DNA from: a virus
Direction: 5' to 3' (one strand)
IMG/VR virus record: IMGVR_UViG_3300045988_173968
DNA: 64,000 bases
The notes beneath the pieces were generated by a model that was not told the DNA's origin, ran no database searches, and worked only from the letters and a program-made list of their open reading frames with translations. Below, in pieces: positions 1,617 through 64,000 of the stretch (positions are counted from its first letter, which is position 1; each line of letters opens with the position of its first letter). Position numbers and translations under genes: made by a program.

Positions 1617-1814
1617 TCATATTGAATATGCCTGAGCCAACCATTTTTCGCAGGGAACTCTCTTTATCAATCTCTTACTTCCCACAAACAGGACGAAGTT
1701 GCAATTCGGTTCATTGGTTATTTCCCGCAGCTTGCATATCCCAATCCCAAAGTAAGCCGCGGCTTCTTCAAGGGTCAGGTTTGACTTCTCCTAAATTGGC
1801 ACTGTACAATTCAT
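1617..1814 (-). CDS. xis: Excisionase (Tn916 Xis-like HTH) with an in-frame TAG at codon 8
   Basis: MNCTVPI[TAG]EKSNLTLEEAAAYFGIGICKLREI...LIKRVPCEKWL resembles Tn916 Xis ([22 protein letters not shown]) as recalled. TAG at 1793-1791, TGA stop. Not in the ORF track because TAG splits it. Confidence 0.7.
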
Positions 1815-1815
1815 A

Positions 1816-2259
1816 TTACTTCCTCCCTGTCGATCCAAACCCACCTCGAGATTCTTTATTAAGTCTTGTACATTCCTCAAAATCAATCGCAGGTTGGTGC
1901 TTCATAATTCTGAACTGTGCAACTCTGTCATTCATCTCAATTCGGCAGTCTCTCGTTGCATAGACTGGCAGTTTCCACTCGTCCTCGTCTCCGCAATATG
2001 ATTCATCTACAACTCCAACGGAGTTGGTCTGAATGATTCCATAGTTGCGGAATGTAGAACTGCGGGGTGCAATGTGCGCTTCATAGCCTTCCGGCAACGC
2101 CATGGCTATACCCAGCGGAATGAGCCTAAAATCGCCCGCCTTCATCTCAACCGTTTCCGCAGAACGCAGGTCAATCCAATCGCTTTTGCCATCTATGTAT
2201 TTGAGGTCATCAATATCCTTTGATAAATACTTGATTTTAATTGTTACCTTGTCTTCCAT
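1816..2259 (-). CDS. dut: dUTP diphosphatase (dUTPase)
   Basis: Motifs AGDFRLIPLG, PRSS, GVVDESYCGD and the C-terminal RGGFGSTG. Start taken at MEDKV (2259), just after the nrdG stop. Confidence 0.85.
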   Translation of the reverse strand: MEDKVTIKIKYLSKDIDDLKYIDGKSDWIDLRSAETVEMKAGDFRLIPLGIAMALPEGYEAHIAPRSSTFRNYGIIQTNSVGVVDESYCGDEDEWKLPVYATRDCRIEMNDRVAQFRIMKHQPAIDFEECTRLNKESRGGFGSTGRK

Positions 2260-2264
2260 CTTTT

Positions 2265-2759
2265 TTAGCCTTCTTTCCATAATACTAACTTGTTCTCTCT
2301 TATCGACACTTTTACATCTATCACATTCTGATTGCTGGAACCTACCCAATGCTTATCCGGTGACTTGAGTTCGTCTATGTATTCTCCGTCCACCAGGACA
2401 TCGATATTCTCAATACCCGGTTTTCGCTTCACAGTATCCCAACTGGAACCAGTGTAAACCCAAATGTTCTTGTTCGGGAATGCTTTTTTAACGGCATCAA
2501 TGAGACGCATTGTATCCCAAATATTTGCAAGGGACAGAGGGTCGCCGCCAGTCAATGTAATACCAGAACACCAGTCTTGCGATAGCGTATCACATATCAT
2601 GTTCTATTCTTTCTCTCCAAACTCTGAGCCGACATTAGCGTCCCATGTTTCCGGATTGAAACAATTTTTGCAATGATGTTCACAGCCGGAGACCCAGATC
2701 ACACATCTGAGCCCCGAGCCGTTATTCATGTTGCAGTTGTCAATCTTGATGTAATTCAT
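2265..2759 (-). CDS. nrdG: Anaerobic ribonucleotide reductase activating protein (radical SAM), read through one in-frame TAG
   Basis: The N-terminal segment carries CEHHCKNC (CxxxCxxC). TAG at 2606-2604 is in the same frame as track ORF 2265-2600 (GITLTGGDPL). The ATG overlaps the nrdD stop (TAATG). Confidence 0.8.
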
Positions 2760-4888
2760 TACATTGACTTCCTTTCAGCGAACTCTGCCAACTTATGGTC
2801 AGCATACATCGTTCTTCCCTTAACTTTGCTGTAACCTAAATATCCATTCATTCTTTCTATTCGTGTAATATTCGTGCTGCCACACTTGGGACATTCATCT
2901 TTGTCAATAAAGGAAGCTCCACAGTCTTCACAATAATCGAGTTGCATATTGATACCCTCGTAGAAACCCATCTTCATAGCTCGTCTGATGAGAGTTTTCA
3001 TTGCCTCCGTGTTGTAGTCGGTTGTATATCTGCAATACTGAATATTACCACCATTACAAAGATGGAACATTGGATATTCAATGTCTTGCTTTTGGATTGG
3101 GCTTATGTCTTCCCAAACTCCACAATGGAATGAGTTACTTGTGTATGGCCTATCAGAGACGCCTTTGATAATGCCATATTTTTTACGGAACTGTTCTATT
3201 TGGAGCCCGCAGAGACTTTCTGCAGGAGTACCGTACAAAGCATAGAGTATTCCATCTTCCTTTTTATATCTGTCGGCGTAAGTGTTAATGAATTTTAGTG
3301 TGTCAATTGCGAATGTATTATCCTCTGCAATGGATTTGCCACAGTACAATACACTGGCTTCATTCAGCGCTGTAATGCCAAAACTCATTGTCATCGGGCG
3401 CAGGAAGTCTTCACCAAGCTCCTGCTCTGGATCTAAACGACCGTTCAAGAATCCACCCTGACAAAAAGCCAGAGGATTGGTTCCTGCTTTCTTATGCGAC
3501 AGGTAACTGAATGTTCTCTTATGGATCGCTCTGCAAAGGTCGAGATAATAAGTGAGAACCTCGTAATAATCTTTGTTCTCCTGCTGAGCCTTTGCAACAA
3601 TCATTGGAAAGTGCAACGAGATTGCTCCCAAGTTGCAGCGTCCCTCATATACGGGTTTATCGTTCTCATCGGCGGGTTCCATACCGCCTCGTTCATACCA
3701 TGGACTTAAATTTGCCCGGCAACCCATTCTTGAAATAGTTACTCCATGTTTTTTATAGATGCTTGGAGCATACCCGTCGCCTGTACAACTGATGTAGTCA
3801 GGATACATGGCGGCTTTGCTACATTCGATTGCCTCATCAAACAGCCATTCGAGATCACCGCCTTCACCATGCAGGTTCTCATCATAGAAGAAACTCAGCT
3901 TAGGGAAAAGAACCGGGTGTTTGAAACCTGGCTTTCCCTGCCCGTCTCTTCTTACTGCCATACAGACTGATGAGAGCATTGTTTCAAATTTACTCGTTCC
4001 GAGTCCAAAAGAAATACTGGTAAAGGGATAATCTCCGCGGCTTGAAGCCACAGAATTGAATTTCATTTCCCAGCCTTGAAAACCCTGTTCAGCGTCTCTG
4101 GCCACCTTTCCAAACGCCCAGTTTTCAGCTGCCTTGCCGTCTTTGTGTGTGAGCGAAACATATTCATTGTAATATTTCTTGAAACTCATCTCGGCGTAAG
4201 GAGCGAGAAGCTTGTCGATCTCACTTATCGTAAACCCACCATACTGGCACGATGCTGCGTTCATTGCAATATCGCCTACAAGATCAAATGCCACATCAAG
4301 TGTTTTGGGCTCCTGGTAATCAAGGTTCCCCATGAAGAATCCGCCTTTGAGTACAGCTCCCATGTCAAAGAGGCAGCAATTGACACTATCCAGCCTGCTC
4401 CCTCTATCATGGATATAGATGTACCCTTCATTCATCGCCTGCCGTTCTTCGCTTGTAAGGAAAAACTTTTTATATAGTTCGCTATTCAGTTCGTTATACA
4501 CAATGGCTTTTTGGGTCGTCACCAATGCGGAATCAGCGTTGGCATTGCTTCTATCTCCTACGAAGCTAAGTGACAGTTTTTTGTTGTACACTCTATCAAG
4601 CATAGAAGCAAAAGAGGATTTGTTATCTCGATATTCTCTGTATGATTTAGCCACGGATGGGTTAACTGTATCAAGAGCACATTCTACTACATTGTGAACA
4701 ATGCTTACCGGCACCGGTTGCTCATACTCGGACATTCTTCGCTTCGCAAAAGCGACCACTTTGTCTTCTTCCTTATCGGTAAGGGTAACACAGACCCGCT
4801 CAGCACTCTTGCGAATTGCGTTCTTAATCTTTTGCGGTTCGAAATCTACAGTGTTACCGTTCTTCTTGAGCACAGAAAGCTTCTTCAT
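2759..4888 (-). CDS. nrdD: Anaerobic ribonucleoside-triphosphate reductase (class III)
   Basis: 709 aa. N-terminal ATP-cone (VLKKNGNTVDFEPQKI), a C-terminal Zn-ribbon (CEDCG...CPKCG) and the glycyl-radical motif RMNGYLGY. Confidence 0.9.
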   Translation of the reverse strand: MKKLSVLKKNGNTVDFEPQKIKNAIRKSAERVCVTLTDKEEDKVVAFAKRRMSEYEQPVPVSIVHNVVECALDTVNPSVAKSYREYRDNKSSFASMLDRVYNKKLSLSFVGDRSNANADSALVTTQKAIVYNELNSELYKKFFLTSEERQAMNEGYIYIHDRGSRLDSVNCCLFDMGAVLKGGFFMGNLDYQEPKTLDVAFDLVGDIAMNAASCQYGGFTISEIDKLLAPYAEMSFKKYYNEYVSLTHKDGKAAENWAFGKVARDAEQGFQGWEMKFNSVASSRGDYPFTSISFGLGTSKFETMLSSVCMAVRRDGQGKPGFKHPVLFPKLSFFYDENLHGEGGDLEWLFDEAIECSKAAMYPDYISCTGDGYAPSIYKKHGVTISRMGCRANLSPWYERGGMEPADENDKPVYEGRCNLGAISLHFPMIVAKAQQENKDYYEVLTYYLDLCRAIHKRTFSYLSHKKAGTNPLAFCQGGFLNGRLDPEQELGEDFLRPMTMSFGITALNEASVLYCGKSIAEDNTFAIDTLKFINTYADRYKKEDGILYALYGTPAESLCGLQIEQFRKKYGIIKGVSDRPYTSNSFHCGVWEDISPIQKQDIEYPMFHLCNGGNIQYCRYTTDYNTEAMKTLIRRAMKMGFYEGINMQLDYCEDCGASFIDKDECPKCGSTNITRIERMNGYLGYSKVKGRTMYADHKLAEFAERKSM

Positions 4889-5160
4889 TCTCCATACCCC
4901 CTCTCGATAAGGGTCATGATTGCGTAGTTGGCAAGGTCAAGCAGTGTGTCGTCTATTGACTCGTCATTAACCGCTGCGCTGCCATTTCGGACAAGATTCT
5001 TTACCCGCTGAAGCTTATCTTCGAGACGGATGCATGGCATCGTCATTCCATATTCAATGAATGACCTACCAAACGAGTCTCCATAATCTTTGTTTTTGCG
5101 CTCATATATGCCGTTGAGTTCTTTACAAATTCTTTCGTGTTTTCTAACTTTGTCTTCCAT
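4885..5160 (-). CDS. DUF1599-like small protein (often found beside thyX in phages)
   Basis: KNKDYGDSF...IRLEDKLQRVKNL...ESIDDTLLDLANYAIM pattern recalled for DUF1599. Start at MEDKV with an AAAGGGG RBS. Confidence 0.5.
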   Translation of the reverse strand: MEDKVRKHERICKELNGIYERKNKDYGDSFGRSFIEYGMTMPCIRLEDKLQRVKNLVRNGSAAVNDESIDDTLLDLANYAIMTLIERGYGE

Positions 5161-5165
5161 GAATA

Positions 5166-5882
5166 TTACCCCTTTCTCGGACTGCCGCAACTCATTTTAC
5201 CTTCTGGACAAGCGCCGGAGACACACGGTGCTCCTGCATGAGAGAACAAGATCGGAGCAACTTCTTTGCAAAGCCGAAGCATTTCATCCGCCAACGCCCT
5301 GATCTCATCCTGGGCACGATTGCAACATCTCTTATTGAAGAAATGCATCAGCTCTCTGGCATTCATTGTAACAATCAGCTTCGTTTCGCAGGCATTTGGA
5401 AGTACAGCTCTTGCGTTTTCTATAGCTATCTTCTCAGCCTTTTTTCGTTCCATTCCATTCGTCACCAAGTCAGCCGTAATTGCCGCTGTAAGCGTTTTGT
5501 ATGCCTCGAACGACTCATTTACCGCTTCATCGAAAAGCTCCTTATACATCGAATTTGAGGCTATAATGGGCGGCGTAATGTACTCAAAAGTGTCTCCAAG
5601 GTTCACATACCTCTGGCTCTGTACACTGAATGAAGCAATGCGGTGACGAGTGATCTGTGCCAATAAGGATCGGGATACGCCATCTACGGCGAATGTAAAT
5701 GATGCATGTTCAAGAGGACTCTCATGGCCGAGATCGGCAAGCATCTTAATAAACTTGTCAACATTTTCTTCGGTTAGCTTCTCGTAGATGCCACATGCAT
5801 CCGTTTTTGAGTAGCATAGCTTTGCTGCAGTTGTTATTAGTTTTTCTGGCTCAGGAGTATGTGCAAGCAACTGAACATTCAT
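5166..5882 (-). CDS. thyX: Flavin-dependent thymidylate synthase ThyX
   Basis: The ThyX signature RHRIASFSVQSQRY (RHRxxSxxxxSxR) and the typical LEHASFTF. Confidence 0.9.
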   Translation of the reverse strand: MNVQLLAHTPEPEKLITTAAKLCYSKTDACGIYEKLTEENVDKFIKMLADLGHESPLEHASFTFAVDGVSRSLLAQITRHRIASFSVQSQRYVNLGDTFEYITPPIIASNSMYKELFDEAVNESFEAYKTLTAAITADLVTNGMERKKAEKIAIENARAVLPNACETKLIVTMNARELMHFFNKRCCNRAQDEIRALADEMLRLCKEVAPILFSHAGAPCVSGACPEGKMSCGSPRKG

Positions 5883-6211
5883 TTAACTACCTCCAAATCA
5901 AGAACGCTAAACAACCACTTAATCTCGGAATGGTCTTCTTTAAGGCACACAATAAGAGGTCTGTCTTTGAACCTCTCATCATACTCAACCGTAAGTTCTT
6001 TGCCCTTATTTTCTTCAACGAAGTCTTTGTATCTCTGAGAAAGGTCATTCCACTTCACAGAGCCATGGATTCTATCATATCGAAGCCGCACCTTCGTTCC
6101 TTCCGGAATAGATGTTTCCGCCTTTTGACGGTCAACATCCATCAGCATCTGCTCAAGAAGCTTTCGTGCTTTTTTATTTTTAACAAGAGCTCGTTTCTGC
6201 TCTCTATTCAT
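5879..6211 (-). CDS. Hypothetical protein
   Basis: Track ORF. Start moved to MNREQK (6211), immediately after the Pol III stop. No family recognised. Confidence 0.5.
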   Translation of the reverse strand: MNREQKRALVKNKKARKLLEQMLMDVDRQKAETSIPEGTKVRLRYDRIHGSVKWNDLSQRYKDFVEENKGKELTVEYDERFKDRPLIVCLKEDHSEIKWLFSVLDLEVVK

Positions 6212-6212
6212 A

Positions 6213-9200
6213 TCATTCAACCCTTTCGTACTTAATGAGATACCAATATCCGCTTTGATTCTTTTGGACATCAGAAGCGTATATAATGTCTCCCTTGCTG
6301 ATTTTGTTCTTGTTATATGTAGCTGTTCTGATTGTTAATCTCGCATTCTTCCCTGTTCCCATTGAACGAGTAAAGCAGGCATAGCCCCATACATCACCGG
6401 AAGTTTTAGACTTTAATGGCACCAAATCGGTTACTATCAGCTTCCGTCTGTCTTCCGGTACTCCTGTCTTAATGTCGATATATCCAAGTATATCGAGCTG
6501 GTTTTGCATTTTAACTTTAAGGTTAATTTCAGAGATATTGAGGCTTTTGATATAGTCCTCGCATTCATGGAGAATAGCTGTCATATCCGTAATTGTGTAG
6601 GTTTTCAGCTCTTCGTTTTTCGCATTACGATCTGTTGCATGTCTGGCAACGATATGCTCCAACTCTGAACCAGCAAGCTTATCTTTGCGGATCGTCTTCA
6701 TTGTTCCCTGTTTAAAGAAATCAAACATCCGCATTATCCGAGACAGCTCTGCGCTATTCCCGAATTGCTGGAAATAATCAATTTGGATAAGCGGTGTTAC
6801 TTTTGCTTCCTTGATAGATCTCTCATTGAGCCAGCTCAGCACATCAACGAAATATTTAAAATCATTTTTGCTACACTGATATAATTCACGAGCGAGTGTC
6901 TTGCCAAAGCCTTTGACCGATGTAAGCGACTTGGTTATGATGCGTTTCTCCACATCTGCAATGGGAGCCCTGTTATCTTGTCCGTATCTATATGGCAAGA
7001 ACTTAATACCGAAGTATTCCTCAGCCTCTCTCTTAGCGTCTTGAGCCCTGTCTTTGTCGCCCTTTTCTTCCATCTGGTTTATGAAAACCTCGTAGAACTC
7101 AACCGGATGATGAGCTTTGAGCCAAGCGCCGTACAAGCTATCCAATGACACACAATAGGAGTGAGAGTTCGATGTAACGATGCCGGTTGCCGTGACAAAA
7201 TTGTGTGCCGGGTCTGACATTTCAACATCGTATGTAAGTTCTTCGCCCAACTTTTCAATAGTGGCAATCTTTTTGAGTAACGGCTGCGGGGATGCTTTAT
7301 CAATTTTGATTTGATAAACCATTTCGGGTGACATCCAGTAAAGCTCATCGCCAACAGATAATTCGTAGAGCTGCTTGTCGCCGCTTGGTGTCGGGAACTT
7401 GTGATTACCCGTACATTTAATGAACATGCCGTGACCATTTTCGAGCGTCACCTTATAAACTGGTTGTTTTCCTGCTGGACGAATGTCAACAATTTTGTTC
7501 TTCGCCAGCCCAGCTTTCCCAAAAGAGTAGCCGTATCCATAACCACGCCGAGCATATTCCATGTGGAGCGGATGTTCCTGGTCATGCATGGCTTTGTACA
7601 TTGTCTCTACGGTTTCCATGCGAGAGTCATACTTCATAATGAATGTGTCACCGGATACACAAGCGTTGAATGAATAACGGCTGGAGTCTTCGATAATTGT
7701 CCACAGGTCGCCCGCCAGCTTCTCTGCTTCTTTTCCTGGCTTCTTTTCGTCCCGAATGATCGCCGCCGCAAAGCCAGAGATGAATTTGTCTTTATATGAT
7801 AAGACCTTTTCTACTCTCTTTTTTGCTATATTTTTGATTGCCGTGTAACACTCCGACATAGGAATTCCTGCGTAATGTAGTGCTGCCATTTCCATCTCCT
7901 GATACAGGACGAAGCTGTTTGGCATTTCCTCTGTCTGGATTAGTTCGTCGAAAGATTTGACCCCGTACTTAAACGGCTGGCGGCTTTCGAATGTCTTGTA
8001 CATGCTTGCAAATCCAGGTCTTATTGCTGCCACAAATGCGCAAAGCTCCGAAATGTTGGTCGGGTGATACTTCGCAACGCGAGCTGTTGTGCCTGTTTTT
8101 TCGACCTGATTGATACCGATAGTTGCACCCTTGGCGTAAACATCCCATGCCGGATCATTCGGAGGACACATTTCTAAGAGCTCCGTTACGCTCGGAGGCT
8201 CCATTCCTATTCTGTCGAAGACCTTATACATCAGGTCTACAACCTTTACTGTAAGTAAATCATTCTTAAGAAAGTGATATTCTTCTGCCCAATGGCCGTC
8301 CATCAGGCAACAGAGATTGTCCTTGATCCTCACCAAGCCAATCTCCTCTCGAATACTTCCTTGATACAGGAGGTAGGAGCAAGGTGCAATACTCCAGCTT
8401 GATATCAAGCCTCGAAAATCATTGCTCTTATCGAATACCTCCCAATATTGTTTGTCGATGTATTTATGTACATCAATGTCTTCTTTTTCATCTTCATCTG
8501 CGTGTTTAAGAGCAGTTTCATATCTCTTTATCTGCTCAGACACTTCGTTGGCAAGCTCAAACGGGACACCCTGTGATTTTGCGTACAGTTTCCATGCGGC
8601 AGATGCCTTTGCTGTGCCGTATGCAATCATCGGATACGCATGGTCATCACCAAGAACCTGTTTTTGAGCCAAGGCAAATGGCTCCTGATTGTCTACATTA
8701 AAGTCAATATCGGGCAGAGATCCACTCTGCAATATTCTTTCTGTAGACATAAATCGTTCTGGGTACATCTTGACTGTAGCCGCAATGCGGTCTACTTCCG
8801 TAAAGCCAAGAAGCATATTCGTAACAAAGCTAACTGCACTGCCACGACCACTTTTCGTCAAATGACCGCCGTTTTTCTTGCCTTGCTTAATTACTTCGTG
8901 GTTAATGATAAAGTAGTCCGCCGTCTTAGTGTCAATTACGGTTTGAACTTCCTTTGCAATTTCATCAATGTAATGTTTCCGCTTTTCTGGAGGAATGCCT
9001 TTCGAATAAGCCTTAAATCCGTTCCTAATGAGCTGCTTATAGATTTCATCTCGTTCCTCTTGAGGTTTATCCAAATACAGAGACGGCATCTTGATATCTT
9101 TGTTGAATATCGGCGAGTCATACTCCTCAACTTGCAAAAACACATTCGTGTTCTCAATTGCTTCTCTTATCTCGCCGTCAGACAACACACACTGTTCTGC

Positions 9201-9917
9201 AAACCGTCGGTACGCTTCATCACCACCAGGATAGTCAAGATACCACCCTTCTTCTTGCGGATAAGTAAGACCTTTTGAAACAAGATAGTCTGTCCGGTCT
9301 TGCGCCTGTTTAGGATAGATATAATGACTATCACATCCCATGATAAGTGGTATCCCACTTTCTCTATGGATACGGATGATTCTTTTGTTCAGTTCCCGCT
9401 GCGACTCCGTATTGTGGTACTGAACCTCCAAATAGAAGTTGCGCCTAAAATGTCCGAACAATGCAGCAACAAAATTCTCGACATCTTCGTAATCCCAAAA
9501 CTTAATGCAAGCAGAAGTCACCCACACATCATCGGGTGGCAAAGAGAGAATCAGTTCTTTATCTAATCTTGCCTGTCCGTAGAAGCCTGTATCATTCGCT
9601 TCGGACATGACATTATTTAACGCTCTACGACCTTTCTCGTTCTTTGCTCCGATGAATATATGGCAGTTAGTACGGTCTTTCTCAAATCTGTCGTTGACCT
9701 AATAGGCTTCAACCGATTCAAGGAATTTGAGACCATATTTTTTAGCCACCTCGTAAGCCTCGATGTATCTCCCTTGGTATCCGTGTTCACACGAGGACAG
9801 AATGCCGTGGCCAAGCTCCACCGCTCTTTTGGCATAGTCCTCGTAGTTTACGGTACTATCGGAGATCCGAGGGTTTGTAAACCAAGAATGTTTGTGATAA
9901 TTCTGATAAACAAACAA
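6213..9917 (-). CDS. dnaE: DNA polymerase III alpha (DnaE-like) with N-terminal PHP domain, one in-frame TAG and a mini-intein
   Basis: Track ORFs 9699-9917 (PHP: NYHKHS...SCEHGY) and 6213-9608 are in one frame joined by TAG 9701-9699 (..SVEAY[TAG]VNDRF..). Shows IRPGFASMY and the FN/SHS motif split by the intein. TTG start. Confidence 0.85.
7167..7661 (-). other. Mini-intein (about 165 aa) inserted in the DnaE YSFN|SHS motif
   Basis: Starts CVSGDTFI (block A), has CTGNHKF (block B TxxH), and ends HNFVTATGIVTSN|S (blocks F/G). The flanks rejoin to SFNA-SHSYC. Confidence 0.7.
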
Positions 9918-9930: not shown

Positions 9931-11868
9931 TCACTTTCCGAATATCTCTTCTTCCGTATCAACAACTGGATACGGCACATGGTCTATGTATTCTGTAGTA
10001 TCCCAAGCGTAATTGTGCTCAAACTCTTCCGGCTTCGTAAAGAACCGCCGAGACGGCACATCGTAATATAAACCGCACTCGAGATTTGCTCGACCTCTTA
10101 AGCGGTCTTTCTGAACGCTAACGACCACATCGTATGGGCATGATGGCTTAACCCACCCGTCACCCTTTGCGTTTGGAATACCAGCCTTTTCTTTCTTTCC
10201 TATTCGTCTAAGGCTAATAGCTCTGTGCGCCAAATTGATTAAATTTGCCGTACCACTCAACTCATACAAGCCCACATTTTCCGTAAGGTCTTGCATCTTT
10301 CTCGGATGGCAAACCAATATAGTACAAACATTATATTTCATGCTAAATTGAATTAGCCAGTTGACGAGTTCGGTTTGTTTCTGCCACTTGTTGTCGTCGT
10401 TTGCACCGAGGTCAATAGTCGTCATGTTGTCAAGTAGAAACAGCTTGCTGCCGTACTTACGAACCGAATCTATCATCGAATCTTGTATCGATTTTACATC
10501 GTTGCTCCAATCGTCTTTATACAGCATGAGCTTTCCGCGATAGAAGTCGGATATTTTCTTCTTTGCCTCCGGCTTAACTCGGTAGTATGTAGCACCTTCT
10601 GGGCTAACATATTCCACGAGGTGGCGTCTCCCAGCCAATAGGTACATAAGCCAGTTGCGGCTCATCCACGCCGGCAGTTCCTTTGAATACACCCAGCAGT
10701 TTTTCTCTTGGTCGAGTGCTTGACAAATTAACTGGTAAAGAAAGGAAGTTTTGCCGGAGCCAGGTGTCCCTGAAATAATAGTAAAGCTTCCATAGAACAG
10801 CCTCATCAATTCTTTGTCCAAAGCATCAATGCCAAACCGAATGCCATCTATATCTGTTAGATCAACATCTTCTACATCAGCAAAATCGACGAGCGATGGA
10901 ACTGGGCTATCCTGAGCGTTGACAATAGCTTCTAAGACCTTATCTTTGCCGAAGAAGTAAAGCATCTCATTTATATCTTTTACGGAGTGTTTTTTGCCTT
11001 CTTCATCTTCGTAATATTCTGGGATATTGACAATCTTGCATCTCCAACTACCCAAACGAGGCACTACTTCTTTGACAAATTTTAAACCTGATTCATCGTT
11101 GTCGTGAGCAATAATGATTTCTTTGAACTGCTCCAACCAATCCTAGCATTCCGGAATCCAATGAGTGTTTCCGTCGCCGAGAGGAATTGAAACGGCATTG
11201 ATAAACCCCGCCTCAACCGCTGCAGCACAATCAAGCTCTCCACTTGTAATAAGCAACGGCTGATCGACATTGATGCGGTTCATATTAAACAATATTGGAG
11301 TTGTGTCCGCACCTTGTTGGCACCAGTTCTTATTTTCACCGTGTACTATTTTTCTCGTCGGACGGTATTTAACCATCGTAAGAGTATCGTTAAGGTCGTA
11401 GTAGTTAAATGCGATGTTTCCTTTAGAATCTTGGCGAATATCAAGATAGTCTACGGTTTCTTTGCTGATTTTTCGTTTTGCCAAATAAGCATACACAGCA
11501 TCCTTTACCTCGTTCTGCTCTGGTTTTGGATAGTTATACGACCGTTTTGTTCGAACGCCTAATTCGCCAAACCCGTAAGCTACGCCGGCAAGCTCAAACA
11601 ATTTTTGAACCGCTTGCATATATGTAAGACCCTGATGCATGAAAGCATCAATAACATCATAGTTTCTCCCGCAAGCTCCAAAGCAATGGCAGCTGTTTGT
11701 TTTAGATGAAAATATAAAGGATGGCGTATTCTCCGCATGGATTGGGCAACAGCAACGCTTATGCACCGAATCGAAATCCTTAACCCCAAAGCCATCCATA
11801 ATCAATTCAAAATTTCTGTCTCCAAGCTTTTCTTTTGCCTTTTCAATCAGTTCTCTCGGTACATTCAA
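9931..11868 (-). CDS. Bifunctional primase-helicase (Zn-finger primase, Toprim, P-loop helicase), read through one TAG
   Basis: CCCPIHAENTPSF..CHCFGACG zinc finger. The Toprim domain is split by TAG 11145-11143 (..HWIPEC[TAG]DWLEQF..AHDNDESG). Walker A GTPGSGKTS and Walker B LFLLDN. Confidence 0.8.
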
Positions 11869-50133: not shown

Positions 50134-50144
50134 GGGGGGTAAAA

Positions 50145-51497: not shown

Positions 51498-51531
51498 ATA
51501 CTCAGAAACTAAGGTTCAAGGAGGTACATAT

Positions 51532-52326: not shown

Positions 52327-52598
52327 TAGCCCATATTTTTTGCATTCTAACTGCAAAATTTGCAAACTGGTTGCAAAAAATTTTTAGAAAACCGCTTGAT
52401 CAATAGGCTTTACGGTACCTGTCCCTTAAAAGGAAATTATAAAGGCTAACAGTTTAACGAAAAATGGGCAAGGGTACATACGCAGGAAGAGGACGCTACC
52501 ATACCACTTGCCCCCAAGCCCCCATTGTATGTGCATGGTGGATACTGTACGCCAATGGAGGACAGTCATTATTATCTTTCGAGGACATATGTTTGTCC

Positions 52599-53846
52599 AT
52601 GAAATACACTTTTGGAAAGAAGGAATGTTTATTGAAGACAGTAAAAGTCTGCGACTCTATCATGGGCTCAGGCAAGACGAGTGCAGCGATACGGATGATG
52701 AACGAGGAAAGGGATAAGAGATTCATCTTTATTACTCCGTTCCTTGCTGAAGCTGACCGCATCGCAGAGGAATGCGAAAGCAGAGGTTTTACGGTTCCTG
52801 TTAAGGTTAAGGGCAGGAAACAGGAATGTCTGCACCAACTGTTGCGGGAAAAGAGGAATGTGTCCACCACTCACGCACTGTTTCTGGACAGTACGGAGGA
52901 GACTATCCGGTTAATTGAAGAAGGCGGATACACATTAGTTCTCGACGAGGTACTTGAACTGTTCGAGAGCAAGGACATCTCGGAGGACGATGTGAACCTG
53001 TTGCAGATTGGCGGAGTAATTGAGATTAAGGAGAACGGTTCTGTTGTCTGGCTAAACGAAGAGTATGATGGTGTGTTTGCGGACTATAAGGAGATGGCAC
53101 TGACTGGCGAACTTTATTACATCAATGATCGGCTGATGTTTTACTCCTATCCTGCTGATGTACTTAAGGCGTTTGAGGAAGTGTATGTGCTAACTTACAT
53201 GTTCGCCGCCCAGACACAAAGATACTACTTTGACATGCGCGGTATTGGTTATGAGTACATCGGAACAAAGAAGCTGCCGGACGGGGGGTACATTTTCACC
53301 GAACGGGCGGAGGTACCTGAGTACGCTAGACACCTTAAGGAAAAGATACATATTGTGGACAGTGAGAAGATGAACAGTGTAGGTAATGGGAAGTATGCCT
53401 TGTCTATGAGATAGTTCCAAGAGAGAGCCGAGCCGGAAGCCGTCGAGCAGATTAAAAAGAACCTACTAAATTATTTTCAAGCAATTAGTGGTTCCAAGGC
53501 ATCTGACCGCTTGTGGGCAACATACAACGTTTCCAAGGATAAGTTGCAGGGGCGTTATGGTCAAAGCTTTCTCTCCTTCAACTCTCGTGCGACAAATAGC
53601 TACAGAGACAAGACCTGTCTGGCGTATCTAGTAAATGTATTTATGAATCCATTTGAGTACAACTTCTTTACGGCGCAGGGCGTCCAGCCAGACCAAGATG
53701 GGTATGCACTGTCTGTTATGGCTCAGTGGATCTGGCGGTCGGCTATCCGCGAGGGCAAAGACATTGAGATTTACATACCGTCCAAGCGAATGCGAGACCT
53801 GTTGATTGCATGGTGCGATAGACTGGAGAAGGGAGAGATGCGGTAA
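52599..53846 (+). CDS. P-loop NTPase (helicase- or ATPase-like) read through one TAG
   Basis: Walker A IMGSGKTS and Walker B TLVLDEV. TAG at 53412-53414 joins track ORFs 52464-53414 and 53511-53846 in one frame. Start uncertain. Confidence 0.55.
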
Positions 53847-55603: not shown

Positions 55604-56103
55604 GTGTAGTTTGTGCGAGAAAGTATGAAGATAAAATAATTATGGCTGCTGACTCGATTCTTTGCCAAGGCGATATGAAACGCACAAAAGGGGATGTCGT
55701 AAAGCTTCGCTCTATCAATGGAATGGGGATTGGCGGATGTGGGATGGCGCAGGAGATTAGCCTTATGTTTCGGTTTGCTGATACTCACCTCCCATCTTCC
55801 GCTACAGAAGCTGGAATGCAGGATTTTATCGTTGAGTTTTCCAAATAGAAGCATGGTTACGATGGAGATTATAGTGTCGAAAATGTATATCTGATTACAT
55901 ACAAGGGCCATTTATTCTGTGTTGAAGATTTTCTCGTTTATGAGGTGAAAGAATACGAAGCTATCGGAGCCGGAATGTATTACGGTTTGACTGCTTTGTA
56001 TCTTGGACACACGCCAAGAGAAGCCGTAAAAGTATCGTGTGACCTGTGCTGCTATGTGGCAGAGCCAATTATTGAGGTAGAGTTCCCGAGAGAGGAGGAA
56101 TGA
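55600..56103 (+). CDS. Hypothetical protein (possible Ntn-hydrolase or proteasome-like fold) read through one TAG
   Basis: Track ORF 55600-55848 continues in frame after TAG 55846-55848 (..EFSK[TAG][18 protein letters not shown]..) to a TGA at 56101. Confidence 0.45.
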
Positions 56104-56205: not shown

Positions 56206-59013
56206 GTGAGCTTAACTGACCAGATAAATATCTATGCCGTAGATTCTGACGCATTCTACAACGAGGAAGAACGGGATATCAGTATTCAGCTCAATAATCT
56301 GCGCACCAGAAAGAAGAATTTGAAAGAGGAGTTACGAATTGCTGAGCAGTTTCTGGGTGGTTCCCTTCCGGAGAAGTCATAGGCTACCCGATATCGTGAG
56401 ATATACCGGTTGCGTAAGGAAATTGAGATTGACCCGCCTACACAGGATGTGGTTGAGATTCTCAATGAGCAAATTGCTACCTTGACCCCTATTATCACGG
56501 GGCTCAAAAACGAGCTTAAGGATAAACTGGAGAGCCATTCCGGAATTCGCGCCCTTGACCCTCGTGCGCTCTCCCCTAAAAATGTTATATCGGTGTTTGA
56601 ATCCGCCATGACAAGAGTGTTTGGCTTCGAGAAGGATCAGTTATACGATGATGTAATTGTTGTTCGGGCGTATTACTACGAGGTGCTGAAAGACATCATG
56701 CGGGATGGATTTCTTCACAATGGTGAGCGGTATGTGGTGTTTACGGCATCCGCAGGACAGATCCGAACCAAAAGAACCGTCTTTGTTAAGGAATCTCTGC
56801 TTGAGAAGCATCGTCTGACACTCATGTGTGGGCTTACGGTTGACCATATCAATGAGCTGGGCGGTGTCAATGTCAATAAGTATCTGGCTTATTTGGCTTT
56901 GAGTAACTCTGCCACTGATATTTGGGAAGGGTTCGATATTGATAAGTCCATCGTTGTAGAAGACTTTGAGACGCTCGTAAATGGCACCGTAGACTACATT
57001 GATGGTACTACATATGAAATCACTCGCAAGGAAATGGGCGTTCCCATAACGCACACAGATGGCTGTGGAATGATGCTGCCGAGCATCAGTTGGAAGAACA
57101 TGATGGTGCGGCTCCCATGGGTAAAGGGATTGCTCGCCTCTTTCGACTTCAAGAAGTTCATTCGAGAGGCTAATGAGAGAGAACCGGAGATAAACCATGG
57201 TCTCGTCAGAGATATCTACGGCAAAGAATGGGATATTCTGCGAGACGATATCCGTTGTATTTTCACTAAGAGTCAGTTCAAAATGTAGAAATATTACGAC
57301 AATTGGCAGGATTATGTCGATAAATTTAAACATTATGGGTGTCTGGCGTGTAAGTGCAACGAAGAAGAGAGCTTCATCCCCAACGCCAAACTGAACTACC
57401 AGATGTTGCAGACTCTGACCGATATATCAGATGAGGAGTTGCGGGCTCTCGCTGAAAAGTCAGTCAAAAAGCTGGACAACATTGCAGCGGATAAGGATAC
57501 CATGCTCCGAGTATTTGGTGTTAAGGACAGCAACCGAGAGAAGAATCACTTTCAGAAATGTGTCGGTATCTATAATGAACTTCTCTGCCAGGAGTATTCC
57601 AAGGAAACCTTAAAACAGATAAAAAAGAGCCTCGTCAATGACTATCGGGCGGGAAAATTTGATGTTGATGGCAAATATCTGTTTATTATTCCGGATCTGT
57701 ACGCATTTTGCGAGCATCTGTTCCTTGGCATTGAAGTGCCGCAGGGGCTGCTTAAGGACGGTGAAGTGTCGGCAAGAGTGTTCGCCAAGCGGGAGAAGCT
57801 GGATTGCCTGCGGAGTCCACACCTCTACCGCGAGCATGGTGTTCGCCGTAATGTGGTCAACGAGGATACGAAGAAGTGGTTCCGTACTGATGCTCTTTAT
57901 ACAAGCTCTTATGATTTAATTAGCAAATTATTGCAATTCGATTGCGACGGAGATAAGAGCTTAGTGGTCGCTGACGAACTATTTGTCAGCATAGCAGAAC
58001 GAAACATGCATGGTATTGTCCCCCTCTATTACGAGATGGCGAAGGCGGGACAGATGCATATTGACAATATGAAGATCTACGATGGTTTGCAGGCTGCCTA
58101 CAGCGGTGGCAATATCGGTGAGATCAGCAATACTATTACGAAGATTTGGAACAGTGGCGAAATGACGCAGGATAAACTTGATGTGATTAAGTGGTTATGC
58201 TTCGAGAATAATGCAACAATTGATTACGCAAAAACATTGTAGAAGCCCATCCGCCCACATTATGTTGATAAAGCCATTAAATCCTGCGCCAACTATAAGC
58301 CACCCCAATTCTTTATTTACGCTAAAGATAAAACCCAGGAACAAGTAGAACCACGCAATGACAGCATCGTCAACAAGTTGTTTGACATTATCCCCGATAA
58401 GAGAATGCGTTTTACGGCTGCCAACCTCGGGAAGTTCGATTATAAGGTACTGATGCGAAATCCCATCGTTTCTATTGACCCTCGTGTCATTGAGAAATTC
58501 AAAGATCTTGACGCCAGAAAGAACTTGTCTTTGTCTTACGGTTCCAACGAGGAGAACTATGCATTCTTCCGTACAACCGTTAGATGTGAGCTGTATGCTA
58601 TTAACCCGAATGTGAACGCCGTCTGTGATATGCTTGTGGCTCACTTCTTCCGGGACAAGAAAAGTAAGAGCCTTAATACATTCTGGCTGTGCTATGGTGA
58701 CATAGTGTTCCAGAATATTCGAAACAACATCGAGAAAGATTACATACAGTGCAGTTGCTGCGGCAAACGGTTCTGGAGAACCTCTTATAAGAACCAGATT
58801 TGCGAGGCATGCATTGAGAAGATGTCTAATCCAAATCTGCCAAAACCAATTAGATACAAGGTAAAGGTCTGCATTGATTGTGGTAAAGAGTTCAAGACAG
58901 TTTCTACCGCAAGACGAGCTTGTCGTTGCACCGAGTGTAGCAAAATACGGAAGAGGAAAAATACAGCTAAGCGCGTATCACTCTTCCGGAGCAAAGAAAG
59001 TAACGCTTTATAA
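56206..59013 (+). CDS. YonO-like single-subunit two-barrel RNA polymerase (935 aa) read through three TAGs
   Basis: Three track ORFs (56410-57288, 57403-58242, 58378-59013) plus a 5' segment share one frame, joined by TAGs at 56380, 57286 and 58240. Metal-binding motif QFDCDGDK (DxDGD). C-terminal Zn ribbons. GTG start. Confidence 0.6.
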
Positions 59014-59699: not shown

Positions 59700-60983
59700 A
59701 TGATAGATTTCAAGAGAAAGGAAAACGAAACAGAAAATCAGTACCTGTGGCGGGTTGGCGTAGCTATTGAAAATGGTTCTGCTGGACTGACATAGGATGA
59801 GGCTGCTCCGCTTATCAATAAGGAATGGCGCGAAGATGAATCTGAATATCGTACATCTTCTGCTTACCGTAAGCCGGTGCAGTATGCCCTCCGTTTTATG
59901 GAGGACGGTGTGTTTGATGGCAAGAAGGATGGATTGTCCGAAGAACTAATCGAACAGAAATACGAGCTGACCAAGGAGCGTATGCGTCTGCGTGATGAGC
60001 GTCGAGCAATCAACGACCGCCTGCGGTCTGCCGCTCGCTTAGATCACCGTCTGGATTACCTCGGTGAACTTATTGAGAGCAATGGCCATGCGTCTTTTGG
60101 CAATATCCAGTTGCCGGAGCAGAGAACTATCAATCGCCGTAAGGCTGACATTATTGTTTCTTTGGCTGATTTGCACATCGGCGCATCATACTATAATTAT
60201 AATGGTGTGTATGACAGCGAGATGGCAAAGAAACGGCTTGTAGAATACTTGTCGTATGTCAAGGAAATAAAGGATACACACGACCCAGAGAATTGCCACA
60301 TCGTAATTCTCGGTGATTGCATTTCCGGCAATATACATAAGAATCTATCCGTTACGAATGGCGAGAGTGTTGTAGCACAGATTCAGCTCATGTGCGACTA
60401 TGTGAGCGAGTTCTGCGGCAGAGTTGGCGAGATGTTCGGTCAGACTGGCGGCAATGTAACTATTCATTGTGTTGCTGGAAACCATACTCGTCTCGATAAG
60501 AAGGAAGATGCTCTTCACGACGAGCGCCTGGATGATTTACTTCTTTGGTATCTGAGCAGATTCTTTGCAAAGGTTCCCAATGTGTCCGTTTCCGAAGAGC
60601 GCCTCGATAACGGGATTGACCAATTCATTATTCGTGGTCGTAGCTATGTCGCAGTGCATGGCGATTTCGACGGCTTCAACGAAGCTGGCGTATCCAAACT
60701 GGCGATGTTCCTTGGGTACAAACCAAATGTTGTACTGTATGGGCACAGGCACTTCCCTGCCATGACAGAATGTTCCGATGTGGTAATGGTGCAGAGCGGC
60801 AGCTTGGGCGGTAGCGGGGATCAGTTCACACTGGAGCATCGGATGCGTTCAATGCCTGCTCAGTCCGTTCTCGTTGTTAATAGCGATGGCGTTGTTGCTC
60901 ATTATCCTGTTAAGCTTGGTATTATTCCCTGTCTCTCCTACGACCTGGAAAAGTATCCTGCGGAGGAGGATGATATCCTGTGA
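59700..60983 (+). CDS. Protein with an N-terminal HTH-like region and a C-terminal Mre11/SbcD-like metallophosphoesterase domain, read through one TAG
   Basis: ATG at 59700 with a TAAGGAGG RBS. TAG at 59793-59795 (..SAGLT[TAG]DEAAPLINKEW..) is in frame with track ORF 59877-60983 (LADLHIG, ILGDCISG, VAGNHTR, YGHRH). Confidence 0.6.
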
Positions 60984-61303: not shown

Positions 61304-61390
61304 ATGTCTGGTGAACTTGTATTAAAGGTGTACCCTACCTTAGTGGGAGCTAAAAAAGCGGTGTTGCTCAGCCGAAATTGGGCAGAGTGA

Positions 61391-61418
61391 GGGAGCGTCC
61401 GAAATGGCGCTCCCTTTT
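61391..61418 (+). terminator. Rho-independent terminator after the HU-like gene
   Basis: GGGAGCG-N10-CGCTCCC followed by TTTT. Confidence 0.65.
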
Positions 61419-61446
61419 CATATGAGCGATTAAGAGGAGTGATTAA

Positions 61447-62574
61447 ATGACCGCACCTACAAAGAGGAGCCTTAAGCCAGCGATTGGTGCGGCTAAGGAA
61501 CCTGCTTTTGAAAAGCGAAATGAAAAGTACGAATGTGTTTGCTGCCACGAAGAAAAGAAGCCTACTGATTTCTACAAATCCCCTACTGCGGCGTTTTGGG
61601 ACTACCCCGGCAGCATTACACTTGTGTGCAAGCAATGCGTCCGTAAGCAGTTTGATCGTGATGTGGATCAATACGGTCTTGACAATGCAATTATGTTTAC
61701 CTGCTATCGTCTTGACCAGCCATATATCAAGTCAACTGCAGAGGATGTTAAGGTCAACACAAACCCGTTTGATATTGGTGTTTACCTTGGCTCTGTTTCT
61801 CGTGCTGCCTATACCGGCAAATCTTTCGCGTGGTCTCTCCTTTCCGGAGAAATTAACCGTGACGATGACAATAGTGTCAAGGAAGAGAGAGAAGATAAAT
61901 GGTCTAAGCGAGACCGCCAGAATATGAACTATGTCATATCGATTATTGGGTATGACCCGTTTGATGACGCTGGCCTTAGTAATATGGACAGAAAGTATTG
62001 CTACAATGTCCTTTCATCTTACCTTAATACACCTTATATTACGGACGATTCTCACAAGATGCAGTCCGTTATCCAGCTTACCAATACATTGTTGCAGGTT
62101 CGCAAGATTGACGAAGCAATCAACAGAGAGCAGCTGAAGGCAAACACTAATACCGATACTCTCACCAATATGGTCATGGCGAGAAAGAACCTGCAGACCA
62201 TTGTAAATGCCATTGTAAAAGACAACAATATTGCCTCGCAGTATTCCAAGGAAAAGACCGGCGGGGAAAATACCTTGACCGGCAAGATGCGGGAGCTAAC
62301 CAATAATGGCTATGAAGCAATGAAGGTTAATCTATTTGATATTAAAACCTCTGAGGCTATGAAGCAAATCGCTGATCTTAGTAACTCGAGCATCATGGAA
62401 CAGCTCTCTCTAGATGCCAACGACTATACCGAAATGCTGAAAGAGCAACGCACCATGCTGACTGACCTGCGAGAAAAGGCGGATGCGCTTGAGGAGGAAA
62501 ATAGACAGCTCAAGAATAATCTTGAAAATCTGATTTCGGAATCATCAGCTAAGAGAAAGCGTGGTGGTTCATAA
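61447..62574 (+). CDS. Hypothetical protein immediately upstream of the large terminase (possible small terminase)
   Basis: Position, TAATG coupling to terL, an N-terminal Zn-ribbon (CVCC..CKQC) and a C-terminal coiled coil. Confidence 0.4.
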   Translation: MTAPTKRSLKPAIGAAKEPAFEKRNEKYECVCCHEEKKPTDFYKSPTAAFWDYPGSITLVCKQCVRKQFDRDVDQYGLDNAIMFTCYRLDQPYIKSTAEDVKVNTNPFDIGVYLGSVSRAAYTGKSFAWSLLSGEINRDDDNSVKEEREDKWSKRDRQNMNYVISIIGYDPFDDAGLSNMDRKYCYNVLSSYLNTPYITDDSHKMQSVIQLTNTLLQVRKIDEAINREQLKANTNTDTLTNMVMARKNLQTIVNAIVKDNNIASQYSKEKTGGENTLTGKMRELTNNGYEAMKVNLFDIKTSEAMKQIADLSNSSIMEQLSLDANDYTEMLKEQRTMLTDLREKADALEEENRQLKNNLENLISESSAKRKRGGS

Positions 62575-64000
62575 TGGAAATTTATGTGCCAACTACACCA
62601 TCCGAATGGTCTCAGCGCAAGGTCGAGGAATATGAAAAGGCGGCAAAAGTAATCAATTAGGGGCGAGAAAACCCTGTTCGCTTTGCGGAGGAAGTGTTCG
62701 GCATTGCCATGATCGACTATCAGAAGTGGTCTTTCATGGAGAGCTGGTGGCGGCCATATGTTCTTTGGCTCTGTAGCCGTTCAGCCGGTAAGACAACCGA
62801 GGCTGCAATCTTCTTGCAAACGAAGTGCTTCCTTATACCGAACTATACGGTCTGGATCTTTACAAACAGCGCCGGTCAGTCTATTGAGTGCTTCAAGAAA
62901 ATCGAGGATATCGCCTTGCAGAAGATTCCTTCATTTAGAACCTGTACGGACATCTTCGCTTCCGAAATCGAGAGAAACTCCAATTCCCCTACTGGGTTTA
63001 TTCATGACCCTGCGGGTCATCACTTCTCTCTGTTTAATAATTCTGGTGTGACTACCCTGTCTTCAAACCTTAACGCCATTCGTGGTAAGCGTGGTTCTAT
63101 ATTCTACGACGAGACTGGTTGGATGGGCAAAGAAGAATTTGCAACCACTGAACCATTCGCTTCACAGGACGCGAGTTGGGGTATCGGCGTCTCTAAAGGC
63201 CCTAAGTATTACGAGCCGCAGGCGATGCCTTTGCAGAGACTGTACGCTAGTTCCGCAAGTGATGTGACATATCCGTTTTACGAGAAGTATCGTGATTTCT
63301 CTAAGAAAATGATTCTTGGGCATCCTGACTACTTCGTTTGCGATATCAACGCTAACACTATTTTAGATTTCTCTACTCTTAATGGCGAACAGATCCCTTC
63401 TCACTTACAGCGAGAAGAAATCATCCGAAAGATGGACGAAGACCCGGATATGGCAGAGCGCGAATACTTCAACAAATTCTCAAAAGGCGGCGCTCAAAAC
63501 AGTGTTGTCCGTATGGAGACAATGATCCGGAACTCTTTTGTTTATCCTCCGGTTATGTGCAACGATACTGGTAAGCGTAAATTCATCTTTACATATGACC
63601 CTGCTCGCAACTTCGATGGAAGTGTCCTTTCTATTTTTGAGCTTATTGAGGACGAAAAAGTTGGATTGAAGTTGCGGTATGTGCGGTGTATTTCCTTTGT
63701 CGATACAGAAACGCGCAAGAAAACTCCATTGCCGATGAACGAGCAGGTCAAAATAATCAAAAAACTGCTCGTTGATTACAACGGGCCGAACGCTGCTGAC
63801 TGGGAAAATATCGAGGTTTATATCGATGCCGGTGCCGGTGGTGGCGGTATCTCTGCCGTGGCTGATAACCTTATGGAGGATTGGGAAGACAGTTCCGGGC
63901 AGGTGCATCGTGGCATGGTTGATCCGGAACATAAACAGTATGAGACTTCCAGGGCAAATTATCCTAATGCTCTTCCCTGCATTCATCTGATTGAACCTGC
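62574..64000 (+). CDS. terL: Terminase large subunit (3' end outside the window) read through one TAG
   Basis: Walker A CSRSAGKTT, Walker B SIFYDETGW, and a nuclease region YIDAGAGGGG. TAG at 62658-62660 (..AKVIN[TAG]GRENPVRF..). Absent from the ORF track because it is split and open-ended. Confidence 0.75.

Follow-up and report, generated by a model that had tools for sequence, protein, structure and literature searches.

In-frame TAG codons at tryptophan positions in an SPbeta-like prophage of Angelakisella sp. and a candidate tRNA(CUA) for their decoding

The viral DNA stretch IMGVR_UViG_3300045988_173968 of the IMG/VR database (64,000 nucleotides (nt), in the following the window) contains a number of conserved phage genes which are interrupted in frame by TAG triplets. 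This raises the question whether these triplets are stop codons, and, if they are translated, which amino acid they stand for and which tRNA reads them. In a preliminary description 15 such triplets were listed, TAG was taken for a sense codon and the pattern was likened to that of code 15, in which TAG encodes glutamine. For the present analysis about 84 kb of prophage was inspected, comprising the window and approximately 20 kb read in relatives. The preferred reading, to which a probability of roughly 0.78 is given, is that the window belongs to an SPbeta-like prophage of a standard-code Angelakisella sp., which carries its own tRNA with a CUA anticodon, tRNA(CUA), and in which UAG would be decoded as tryptophan.

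In-frame TAG codons and the amino acid they encode

All 15 listed triplets were confirmed as TAG with respect to coordinate, frame and strand, and each of the frames is delimited only by TAA or TGA (Table 1). No in-frame TAA or TGA and no frameshifts were found in the TAG-bearing genes. As expected for amber reassignment, single homology alignments to conserved genes (Pfam, PHROG or tblastn) run across the TAG at 14 of the 15 sites. The description of the genes as intact and conserved, and the homologue check proposed along with it, held for these 14, while the open reading frame (ORF) at 22880 received no support from Pfam, PHROG or tblastn. Single Pfam stretches span the TAG in xis (Tn916-Xis, amino acids 4-65, with the TAG at amino acid 10 of that translation), nrdG, DNA polymerase III alpha (PHP domain), primase-helicase (Toprim_2), the PD-(D/E)XK nuclease and the YunG-like gene. 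Single PHROG alignments do so in the 21208 gene, the HslV-like 55846 gene, terL and the 53412 gene. For the YonO-like RNA polymerase, one tblastn piece against YonO of phage SPbeta (amino acids 2-869) takes in all three TAGs, and the 59793 site is spanned by tblastn alignments in relatives. The nuclease TAG had been placed inside the D-x-K motif; it is actually located immediately before the D of D-W-K.

Residues conserved in homologues resume straight after the TAGs. Ten of the 15 TAGs are followed by more than 10 codons before an in-frame start codon is reached, so that at these sites the two halves cannot be separate genes. Public annotations based on translation table 11 cut exactly these genes: nrdG into 51 + 111 amino acids, Pol III alpha into 72 + 1131, primase-helicase into 241 + 401 and YonO into four pieces. 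Identical TAGs recur in independent IMG/VR, ENA and Logan assemblies, which excludes assembly errors, a refutation that had been considered beforehand. These alignments strongly support that TAG is translated in this recoded phage, within genes that are intact and conserved. The 15 TAGs share no common sequence motif; a purine at position +4 was present in 12 of 15, compared to 62% for TGG, which is not a significant difference. Several N-terminal TAGs in greedy gene calls (16568, 23988, 27597, 33021/33024 and 54546) were not counted, as they are situated upstream of plausible real starts.

For the identification of the encoded amino acid, the codon opposite each TAG was read in related viral contigs, of which 110, covering the surroundings of YonO and Pol III alpha, were fetched first and more were added later; homologue columns were taken from relatives of less than 85% identity. 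The TAG columns are overwhelmingly occupied by Trp or other aromatic residues, with Gln in only four of 142 distinct contexts. Codetta-style log-odds over 10 TAG columns amounted to +33.3 bits for Trp, -10.3 for Tyr and -15.6 for Gln. In Pol III alpha, 17 of 18 distinct contexts have W at the position of codon 73 (motif EAYWVKDR); the count is 9 of 10 for codon 242 of the primase (motif CWxWLQQF) and also 9 of 10, SPbeta among them, for codon 32 of the YonJ-like gene. The TAG of xis stands opposite W in Xis of Tn916 (PDB 1y6u; IPIWERY versus VPIxEKS), and W is also found in relative L084. In the YonV-like helicase, codon 317 corresponds to W in SPbeta YonV and in five of nine contexts, and to TGG in one close relative. 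YonO-like codon 361 is W in SPbeta YonO (QFKMWKYYDSW) and Y, W or H in the relatives, and the column of codon 679 contains Y 14, W 11 and F 3 times, with TGG in two near-identical relatives. For terL codon 29, W was seen in L060 (WGRAHPV; motif WGRxHPV), and close relatives maintain the TAG. The TAG is also maintained in four close relatives for the YunG-like gene, in three for the HslV-family peptidase-like gene and in alleles of only 65% identity (L132, L133 and L136) for the phrog_4068 gene. A PDB search with the HslV-like protein returned nothing usable.

A second line of evidence comes from 29 near-identical relatives, in which 2,662 polymorphic codon sites were compared. TAG and TGG replaced each other at eight sites, in both directions, and TAG was the commonest swap partner of TGG, as expected of a synonymous codon. 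Exchange between TGG and TGA was not observed at any site, and exchange between CAG and TAG at a single one, codon 3 of a gene, which may precede the true start. Mutation of TGG to TGA is as easy as mutation to TAG, yet TGG swapped with TAG and never with TGA, which argues for synonymy of TAG and TGG; neither gene decay nor a Gln code predicts this asymmetry. In these comparisons TAG occupies Trp positions and is interchangeable with TGG, the pattern of code 32, and the label 'code-15-like' given to the phage earlier was not supported.

The candidate tRNA(CUA) and alternative explanations

The intergenic stretch between the YunG-like gene and the gene for serine hydroxymethyltransferase (SHMT) contains a candidate suppressor tRNA with anticodon CUA, which is the probable UAG decoder. 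It has a 7-bp acceptor stem, G18G19, the T-loop GGTTCGAGTCC, U33, A37, a 5-nt variable loop, G73 as discriminator base and an encoded CCA; a Trp identity would agree with this discriminator base and with the short variable loop. The tRNA is 100% identical in 15 further stretches from relatives (some from the same contig) and occurs as a variant in a 16th. All recoded relatives for which DNA of this locus was fetched contain it, also those in which the adjacent immunity region has diverged to about 70%, and its 100-nt bin is the sole bin without a variable site between 15.2 and 17.5 kb. The variant, from metagenomic contig L136, carries six differences, five of them in stems and all pair-preserving, with the CUCUAAA loop unchanged. 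In the anticodon stem a G-C pair is replaced by A-U, a compensatory change; the D and T stems carry three one-sided changes that are compatible with wobble pairing, and one difference affects the already unpaired position 27.43. No tRNA(CUA) was found in the fetched relatives without recoding; some of these have large arrays of tRNA genes, tRNA-Trp(CCA) among them. Sister clades have no tRNA at the matching position. Promoter and terminator scans around the gene were uninformative. Charging with Trp would be performed by a tryptophanyl-tRNA synthetase (TrpRS), most simply that of the host, because the scanned genes of the window include no TrpRS.

Several observations weigh against a tryptophan-inserting tRNA(CUA). 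Its D-stem has one mismatch and its anticodon stem only three Watson-Crick pairs (C27.U43 and C31.U39 are mismatched), which accounts for a low Rfam tRNA score of 15.5 bits versus a gathering score of 29. With default ARAGORN settings and the Rfam gathering threshold no CUA tRNA was detected, only six ordinary tRNAs, and in folding energy tRNA(CUA) has no advantage over shuffled sequence. The covariation involves only two distinct sequences, and is supportive, not decisive. When the isotype was typed against 666 tRNAs of related phages by pairwise alignment and per-isotype hidden Markov models, the Trp, Glu and Asn profiles scored alike. A paralogue with a CCA or other anticodon was not found in IMG/VR, and neither a TrpRS nor a release factor was seen among the scanned genes (15 TAG-bearing and about 30 others, mostly of at least 140 amino acids). 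In E. coli, a CUA anticodon in tRNA-Trp leads mostly to charging with Gln, by glutaminyl-tRNA synthetase (GlnRS). Three TAG columns do not favour Trp, namely those of the nuclease (mostly V, 9 of 14), nrdG (variable, M or Q) and YonO-like codon 59 (variable, mostly A); all three fall in variable or unusual local sequence. As to the weak anticodon stem, a 2026 study reports that an open 27-43 pair increases UAG read-through by CUA-anticodon tRNAs (PMC13092985), and by this analogy the weak stem may be a functional feature.

Pyrrolysine decoding does not agree with the 11-nt D-loop with GG, the canonical T-loop, the 5-nt variable loop and the Trp positions of the sites. A tRNA-Pyl would be expected to have a 6-bp anticodon stem, a 3-nt variable loop and a small D-loop, to lack G18G19 and T-psi-C, and to be accompanied by pylSBCD genes. 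'Pyl' is merely the ARAGORN label for a CTA anticodon, and none of the scanned proteins resembled Pyl enzymes. A scan of genome contigs with the anticodon-arm pattern matched only unrelated Acidimicrobiia loci without a CUA tRNA. The seventh Rfam tRNA match of the window is a tRNA-like gene located within the phage tRNA cluster (50.8 bits), whose acceptor, D and T arms are perfect. The loop closed by its anticodon stem has just 3 nt (GAG), which leaves no usable anticodon, and ARAGORN reports it only at low threshold with a 4-base 'anticodon'; it was rejected as a suppressor on account of this loop. The strand of tRNA(CUA) also carries, about 80 nt 3' of it, two orphan RNA motifs back to back, skipping-rope and DUF3800-XI, both above their Rfam gathering scores.

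If tRNA(CUA) were charged with glutamine, TAG would have the code-15 meaning known from crAss-like, Lak and phAss-1 phages. This is the sole TAG reassignment published for phages of standard-code hosts (bioRxiv 10.1101/2021.08.26.457843; PMC9523058; PMC10607447), but for the present phage it is very unlikely in view of the log-odds and swap counts given above. Gln would be a non-conservative residue at the invariant Trp positions of polymerase, primase, terminase and Xis, and the 255 CAG and 169 CAA codons of the window leave ample room for a Gln-synonymous drift. On the side of glutamine are the four homologue contexts in which it occurs and U35 of the anticodon, a strong GlnRS determinant in E. 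coli. Another residue or a mixture (Tyr, near-cognate reading), provided by a host factor or by a tRNA outside the window with the 17023-17100 locus uninvolved, is quite unlikely too. The structurally marginal tRNA(CUA), the fact that the prophage was examined in part, two RNA polymerase columns favouring Tyr over Trp and two polymorphisms between TAG and TAY would fit such reading. However, codons 5 and 25, where these polymorphisms occur, belong to stretches that are N-terminal or align poorly, Tyr never appears at the invariant-Trp columns, and bacterial tRNA-Tyr has a long variable arm as opposed to the 5 nt found here. An outside decoder also leaves aside the constant presence of tRNA(CUA) and its pair-preserving variation in the recoded relatives, and no second CUA tRNA was found in the approximately 20 kb of further prophage DNA.

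Two more explanations do without translation of UAG as such. Editing of A to I in the mRNA would turn UAG into UIG, read as UGG, and would thus give Trp at the TAG sites and explain the swaps between TAG and TGG. Bacterial TadA can edit some mRNAs; nevertheless the 15 TAGs have neither a sequence nor a hairpin context in common, none has the TACG core of TadA, and the conserved CUA-anticodon tRNA confined to the recoded clade would be left unexplained, which makes editing highly improbable. Next to no probability is given to the TAGs being genuine stops, i.e. nonsense mutations of a decaying prophage or boundaries of naturally split genes. A single transition from TGG to TAG is a classic nonsense mutation, and one relative, L122, resembles a deletion remnant. 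On the other hand, in-frame TGA or TAA codons and frameshifts are absent, conserved residues follow the TAGs with no restart codon, the same TAGs persist in alleles of 65-99% identity from many samples, and related contigs of 60-106 kb were also recovered as viral contigs. L122 contains in its region 5300-9800 host genes followed by the helicase half of primase-helicase, a 72-amino-acid N-terminal fragment of Pol III alpha, nrdG, dUTPase and integrase, and is either a prophage deletion remnant or an assembly chimera.

Distribution of TAG and the prophage setting

Two modules of the window have 143 Trp codons between them, of which 14 (about 10%) are TAG. One module, at 1.6-23 kb, comprises excision, nucleotide-metabolism and replication genes, and the other, at 52-64 kb, the YonV-like helicase, YonO RNA polymerase, YonJ-like nuclease and terminase. 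Overall there are 14 TAG sense codons in about 17,700 codons. The block of small genes between the modules differs from them significantly in this respect (Fisher p = 3.6e-4). The downstream structural genes (20 kb, read in relatives) contain 58 Trp codons and no TAG, and for the 170 Trp codons without TAG (112 + 58) the combined Fisher test gives p = 1.2e-5. Comparison of coding density, suggested earlier as a check, barely discriminates here: with TAG as sense codon the density rises by only 1.5 points, from 0.794 (table 11) to 0.809, and mean protein length from 183 to 204 amino acids. This falls short of the clear gain looked for by prodigal-gv, Mgcod or the 5-10% rule, and screens based on density would probably miss this phage.

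The predominance of TAA and TGA at gene ends that had been reported was confirmed. With TAG as sense codon, 88 complete gene calls end in TAA (51) or TGA (37). For three genes a TAG end is the best reading, i.e. 3 of about 88 genes in comparison with 7-13% in non-recoded relatives; these remaining ends are kept as TAG. In the MrpR/YopR-like repressor a second in-frame TAG follows four codons on (17504-17506), and read-through of both would add 49 amino acids; the tandem TAG ending is preserved in alleles of 51-57% identity. The TAG stop of the MazF/PemK toxin is preserved in alleles of 63-68% identity; in L081 and L084, two relatives without recoding, the homologous gene stops at TGA or TAA. 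UAG has two uses in this genome, as a sense codon that presumably means Trp and as a terminator. Complete reassignment is unlikely, because UAG still ends three phage genes. The region of repressor and MazF is the most divergent one among relatives otherwise 94-99% identical, with 35-52 variable sites per 100 nt, and looks like an immunity-type swap in which both genes retained the TAG terminator.

A mechanism can be proposed from this distribution. With phage tRNA(CUA) present, UAG would be decoded as tryptophan, and TGG codons would have drifted to TAG at about 10% of the Trp codons of the two enzyme modules. As terminator of the repressor and MazF, UAG would have a meaning that depends on the availability of the phage tRNA. 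Suppression presumably competes with release factor 1 (RF1) of the host and would be incomplete; such competition would allow low-copy enzymes to tolerate TAG, with selection against it where a structural protein is abundant or a gene is expressed in the absence of the tRNA. In this way tRNA(CUA) may gate lytic functions. The further idea that UAG acts as a conditional codon within the lysis-lysogeny switch is a tentative one and considered doubtful. At low levels of the tRNA, UAG would correctly end the repressor and MazF and would truncate Xis, the replication enzymes, YonO RNA polymerase and terminase, keeping lytic functions silent. Once the tRNA accumulates, the enzymes would be completed with Trp, and the repressor, with its TAG-NNN(3)-TAG end, would gain the 49-amino-acid extension, which would disable it.

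The window represents the left 64 kb of the integrated prophage. Host DNA begins around position 78 with the start of the gene for NAPRTase. An exact look-up of the proteins encoded in the flank gave Angelakisella sp. as the host, with perfect matches for NAPRTase, uridine phosphorylase and MgtE. The G+C content is 53.7% in the host flank versus 43% in the phage. All 14 flanking host genes are intact under table 11 and end in TAA or TGA, according to which the host uses the standard code. The prophage has the YonO-type single-subunit RNA polymerase, the Yon/Yom gene order and the MrpR-type repressor of SPbeta-like phages; megablast of the 52-64 kb region against cultured phages gave no match.

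Further features of the prophage and its relatives were noted. The nucleotide-metabolism set consists of NrdD, NrdG, ThyX (Thy1), dUTPase, DUF1599 and a full-length SHMT. Pol III alpha contains, after the finger domain, a 165-amino-acid mini-intein (C...HNFVTATGIVTSN|S) with a weak Pfam Intein_splicing match. In close relatives Pol III alpha has extra insertions, with a LAGLIDADG ORF in L124 and match lengths of 2574 and 2972 nt versus 2037; in addition nrdD is split in L124, YonO has about 280 nt extra in L001, L002 and L068 and an HNH ORF in L130. The insertions in these three genes have the appearance of mobile introns or inteins. About 600 nt of non-coding DNA precede a gene for a reverse transcriptase (Pfam RVT_1, phrog_2825), which could be part of a retron-like or other reverse transcriptase-based element. 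Mid-prophage, where gene orientation switches, a second tyrosine recombinase (Phage_integrase) is encoded; in some relatives this stretch aligns with in-frame TAA, TGA and TAG, and the gene may be decaying there. Between the YonD-like and YonB-like structural genes, L126 and L128 carry an IS605-family OrfB/TnpB (Cas12f1-like TNB) at about 16780-17915, which is absent in L127, L129 and L130. Two Pol III alpha relatives of about 56% identity, L090 and L097, show two to three in-frame TAGs in nuclease/ThyX alignments, opposite M, Q or gaps, and tRNA(CUA) was not found in the fetched DNA of their clade; these TAGs may represent a separate recoding event or an alignment artefact.

Table 1. Coordinates of the TAG sites, the candidate tRNA(CUA) and other features of the window
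Feature	Position	Strand	Remarks
xis TAG, codon 8	1791..1793	-	gene 1617-1814, ATG with GGGAGGAAG ribosome-binding site
nrdG TAG, codon 52	2604..2606	-	gene 2265-2759; Fer4_12 stretch 13-147
DNA polymerase III alpha TAG, codon 73, PHP domain	9699..9701	-	gene 6213-9917; PHP stretch 7-168
Primase-helicase TAG, codon 242, Toprim domain	11143..11145	-	gene 9931-11868; Toprim_2 stretch 207-285
PD-(D/E)XK nuclease TAG, codon 179	12195..12197	-	gene 11865-12731; PDDEXK_1 stretch 70-278
YunG-like TAG, codon 25	17419..17421	-	gene 17209-17493; Pfam stretch 19-85, PHROG stretch 18-71
phrog_4068 gene TAG, codon 50	21206..21208	-	gene 21092-21355; PHROG stretch 9-80
Membrane-like 64-amino-acid ORF TAG	22880..22882	+	ORF 22835-23029; unverified
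YonV-like helicase TAG, codon 317	53412..53414	+	gene 52464-53846; phrog_2467 stretch 58-450
HslV-family peptidase-like TAG, codon 83	55846..55848	+	gene 55600-56103; phrog_1040 stretch 1-166
YonO-like single-subunit RNA polymerase TAG, codon 59	56380..56382	+	gene 56206-59013
YonO-like RNA polymerase TAG, codon 361	57286..57288	+	gene 56206-59013
YonO-like RNA polymerase TAG, codon 679	58240..58242	+	gene 56206-59013
YonJ-like metallophosphoesterase/exonuclease TAG, codon 32	59793..59795	+	gene 59700-60983
terL (YonF-like) TAG, codon 29	62658..62660	+	gene 62574 to window end; phrog_2 stretch 7-429
Candidate suppressor tRNA, anticodon CUA, 78 nt	17023..17100	-	ARAGORN at lowered threshold -ps90
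MrpR/YopR-like repressor	17516..18463	-	TAG end 17516-17518; Pfam MrpR_N_CB
MazF/PemK toxin	18512..18895	-	TAG end 18512-18514, next stop 11 codons on; Pfam PemK_toxin
Endolysin-domain-like gene	43847..44359	-	best read as ending at TAG, next stop 8 codons on
Block of 52 mostly small genes and 6 tRNA genes	23100..52400		112 TGG, no credible internal TAG
Tyrosine integrase at prophage end	349..1539	-	no TAG, TGA stop
DUF3800-XI RNA motif	16809..16856	-	
skipping-rope RNA motif	16861..16945	-	
tRNA-like gene	43561..43629	-	rejected as suppressor
Divergent repressor and MazF region	17516..18895	-	
Nucleotide-metabolism set	2265..6271 and 15288..16478	-	
Mini-intein in Pol III alpha	7167..7661	-	
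Reverse transcriptase	34734..35882	-	non-coding upstream stretch 35883-36488
Second tyrosine recombinase	51397..52326	+	

Comparison with known phages and recoded systems

The closest known system with respect to gene content is SPbeta (Spbetavirus). YonO of the two phages shares 47.6% identity over 93% of its length, homologues of YonV, YonJ, YonG, YonF, YonD, YonB, YomX, YomW, YomV and YomU are found in the same order, and both have an MrpR/YopR-like repressor and a large temperate genome. SPbeta differs by its host, Bacillus, in place of a gut anaerobe of the Clostridia, and by TGG at the three alignable TAG positions where it carries Trp (YonO codon 361, YonV and YonJ).

With the code-15 gut phages (crAss-like, Lak, Garnet, phAss-1) the prophage shares in-frame TAG in essential genes, a phage tRNA(CUA), a standard-code host and the lack of a phage aminoacyl-tRNA synthetase, in the present case among the scanned genes. 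Its integrase does not contain the recoded codon, which has also been reported for Garnet and Topaz prophages. Code 15 has been confirmed by metaproteomics (PMC9523058), and phAss-1, a neighbouring group of gut Clostridia phages, has been described as reading TAG as Gln (PMC10607447). The differences concern first of all the amino acid, Gln in those phages and, as proposed, Trp here. Recoding is also about ten times sparser here, mostly with one TAG per gene, and the gain in coding density is far below the roughly 20 points known from code-15 phages (PMC11210395). Finally, TAG is enriched in late, structural and lysis genes of the code-15 phages, whereas here the structural genes are without TAG and three genes end in it.

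In the code-4 phages Jade and Agate, a suppressor tRNA of the phage recruits for Trp a stop codon that differs from TGG by a single transition. There the codon is UGA, and some Jade phages bring their own TrpRS and RF1, none of which was seen among the genes scanned here. A hint at Trp-like amber suppressors was given by Kienbeck et al. 2024 (PMC10879173), who found 19.4% of 180 phage tRNA-Sup(CUA) to be typed as Trp by tRNAscan and mentioned the 'rarely reported code 32'. For these theta-ribozyme-associated tRNAs the assignment was an isotype prediction only, with neither alignment evidence nor follow-up, and the authors concluded code 15. In the present phage no hepatitis delta virus (HDV)-like or theta ribozyme was detected adjoining tRNA(CUA), and the isotype is ambiguous. 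In a search of full-text literature for phrases on TAG/UAG-to-Trp reassignment no phage paper was retrieved, and the work of Kienbeck et al. was the only phage-related hint found.

An established case of UAG meaning Trp, read by a tRNA with CUA anticodon, is NCBI table 32 of Balanophoraceae plastids (bioRxiv 10.64898/2026.01.09.698701). That system is an organelle in which pRF1 was lost, UAG no longer terminates and the tRNA is a clear duplicate of nuclear tRNA-Trp. Here, a virus would apply the assignment within a standard-code cell, and UAG still ends some genes. What appears to be new in the prophage is the combination of a known suppressor-tRNA mechanism with a different amino acid, a sparse pattern restricted to enzymes, and a codon which at the same time serves as terminator.

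Several consequences would follow if this interpretation is correct. The sparse recoding, with one codon per gene in low-copy enzymes, is nearly invisible to detectors based on coding density, so that the prevalence of such phages is probably underestimated, and essential genes of these prophages stand split in public annotations. As the prophage is integrated, cultivation of the host or of a surrogate would allow a direct test of code switching as a lytic gate. A natural Trp-inserting amber suppressor with a 3-bp anticodon stem would also be of interest for genetic-code expansion. Published phage assignments are Gln for TAG and Trp for TGA (or Gly in code-25 hosts). In the largest survey of phage recoding (Borges et al., bioRxiv 10.1101/2021.08.26.457843), only TAG-to-Gln and TGA-to-Trp are stated to be seen where the codes of phage and host differ, and properties of the two synthetases, GlnRS and TrpRS, are offered as the reason. 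A phage with UAG as Trp would break this rule, would give comparative-sequence backing to the hint that a fifth of phage amber-suppressor tRNAs look Trp-like, and would represent a second independent natural origin of the rare code-32 assignment.

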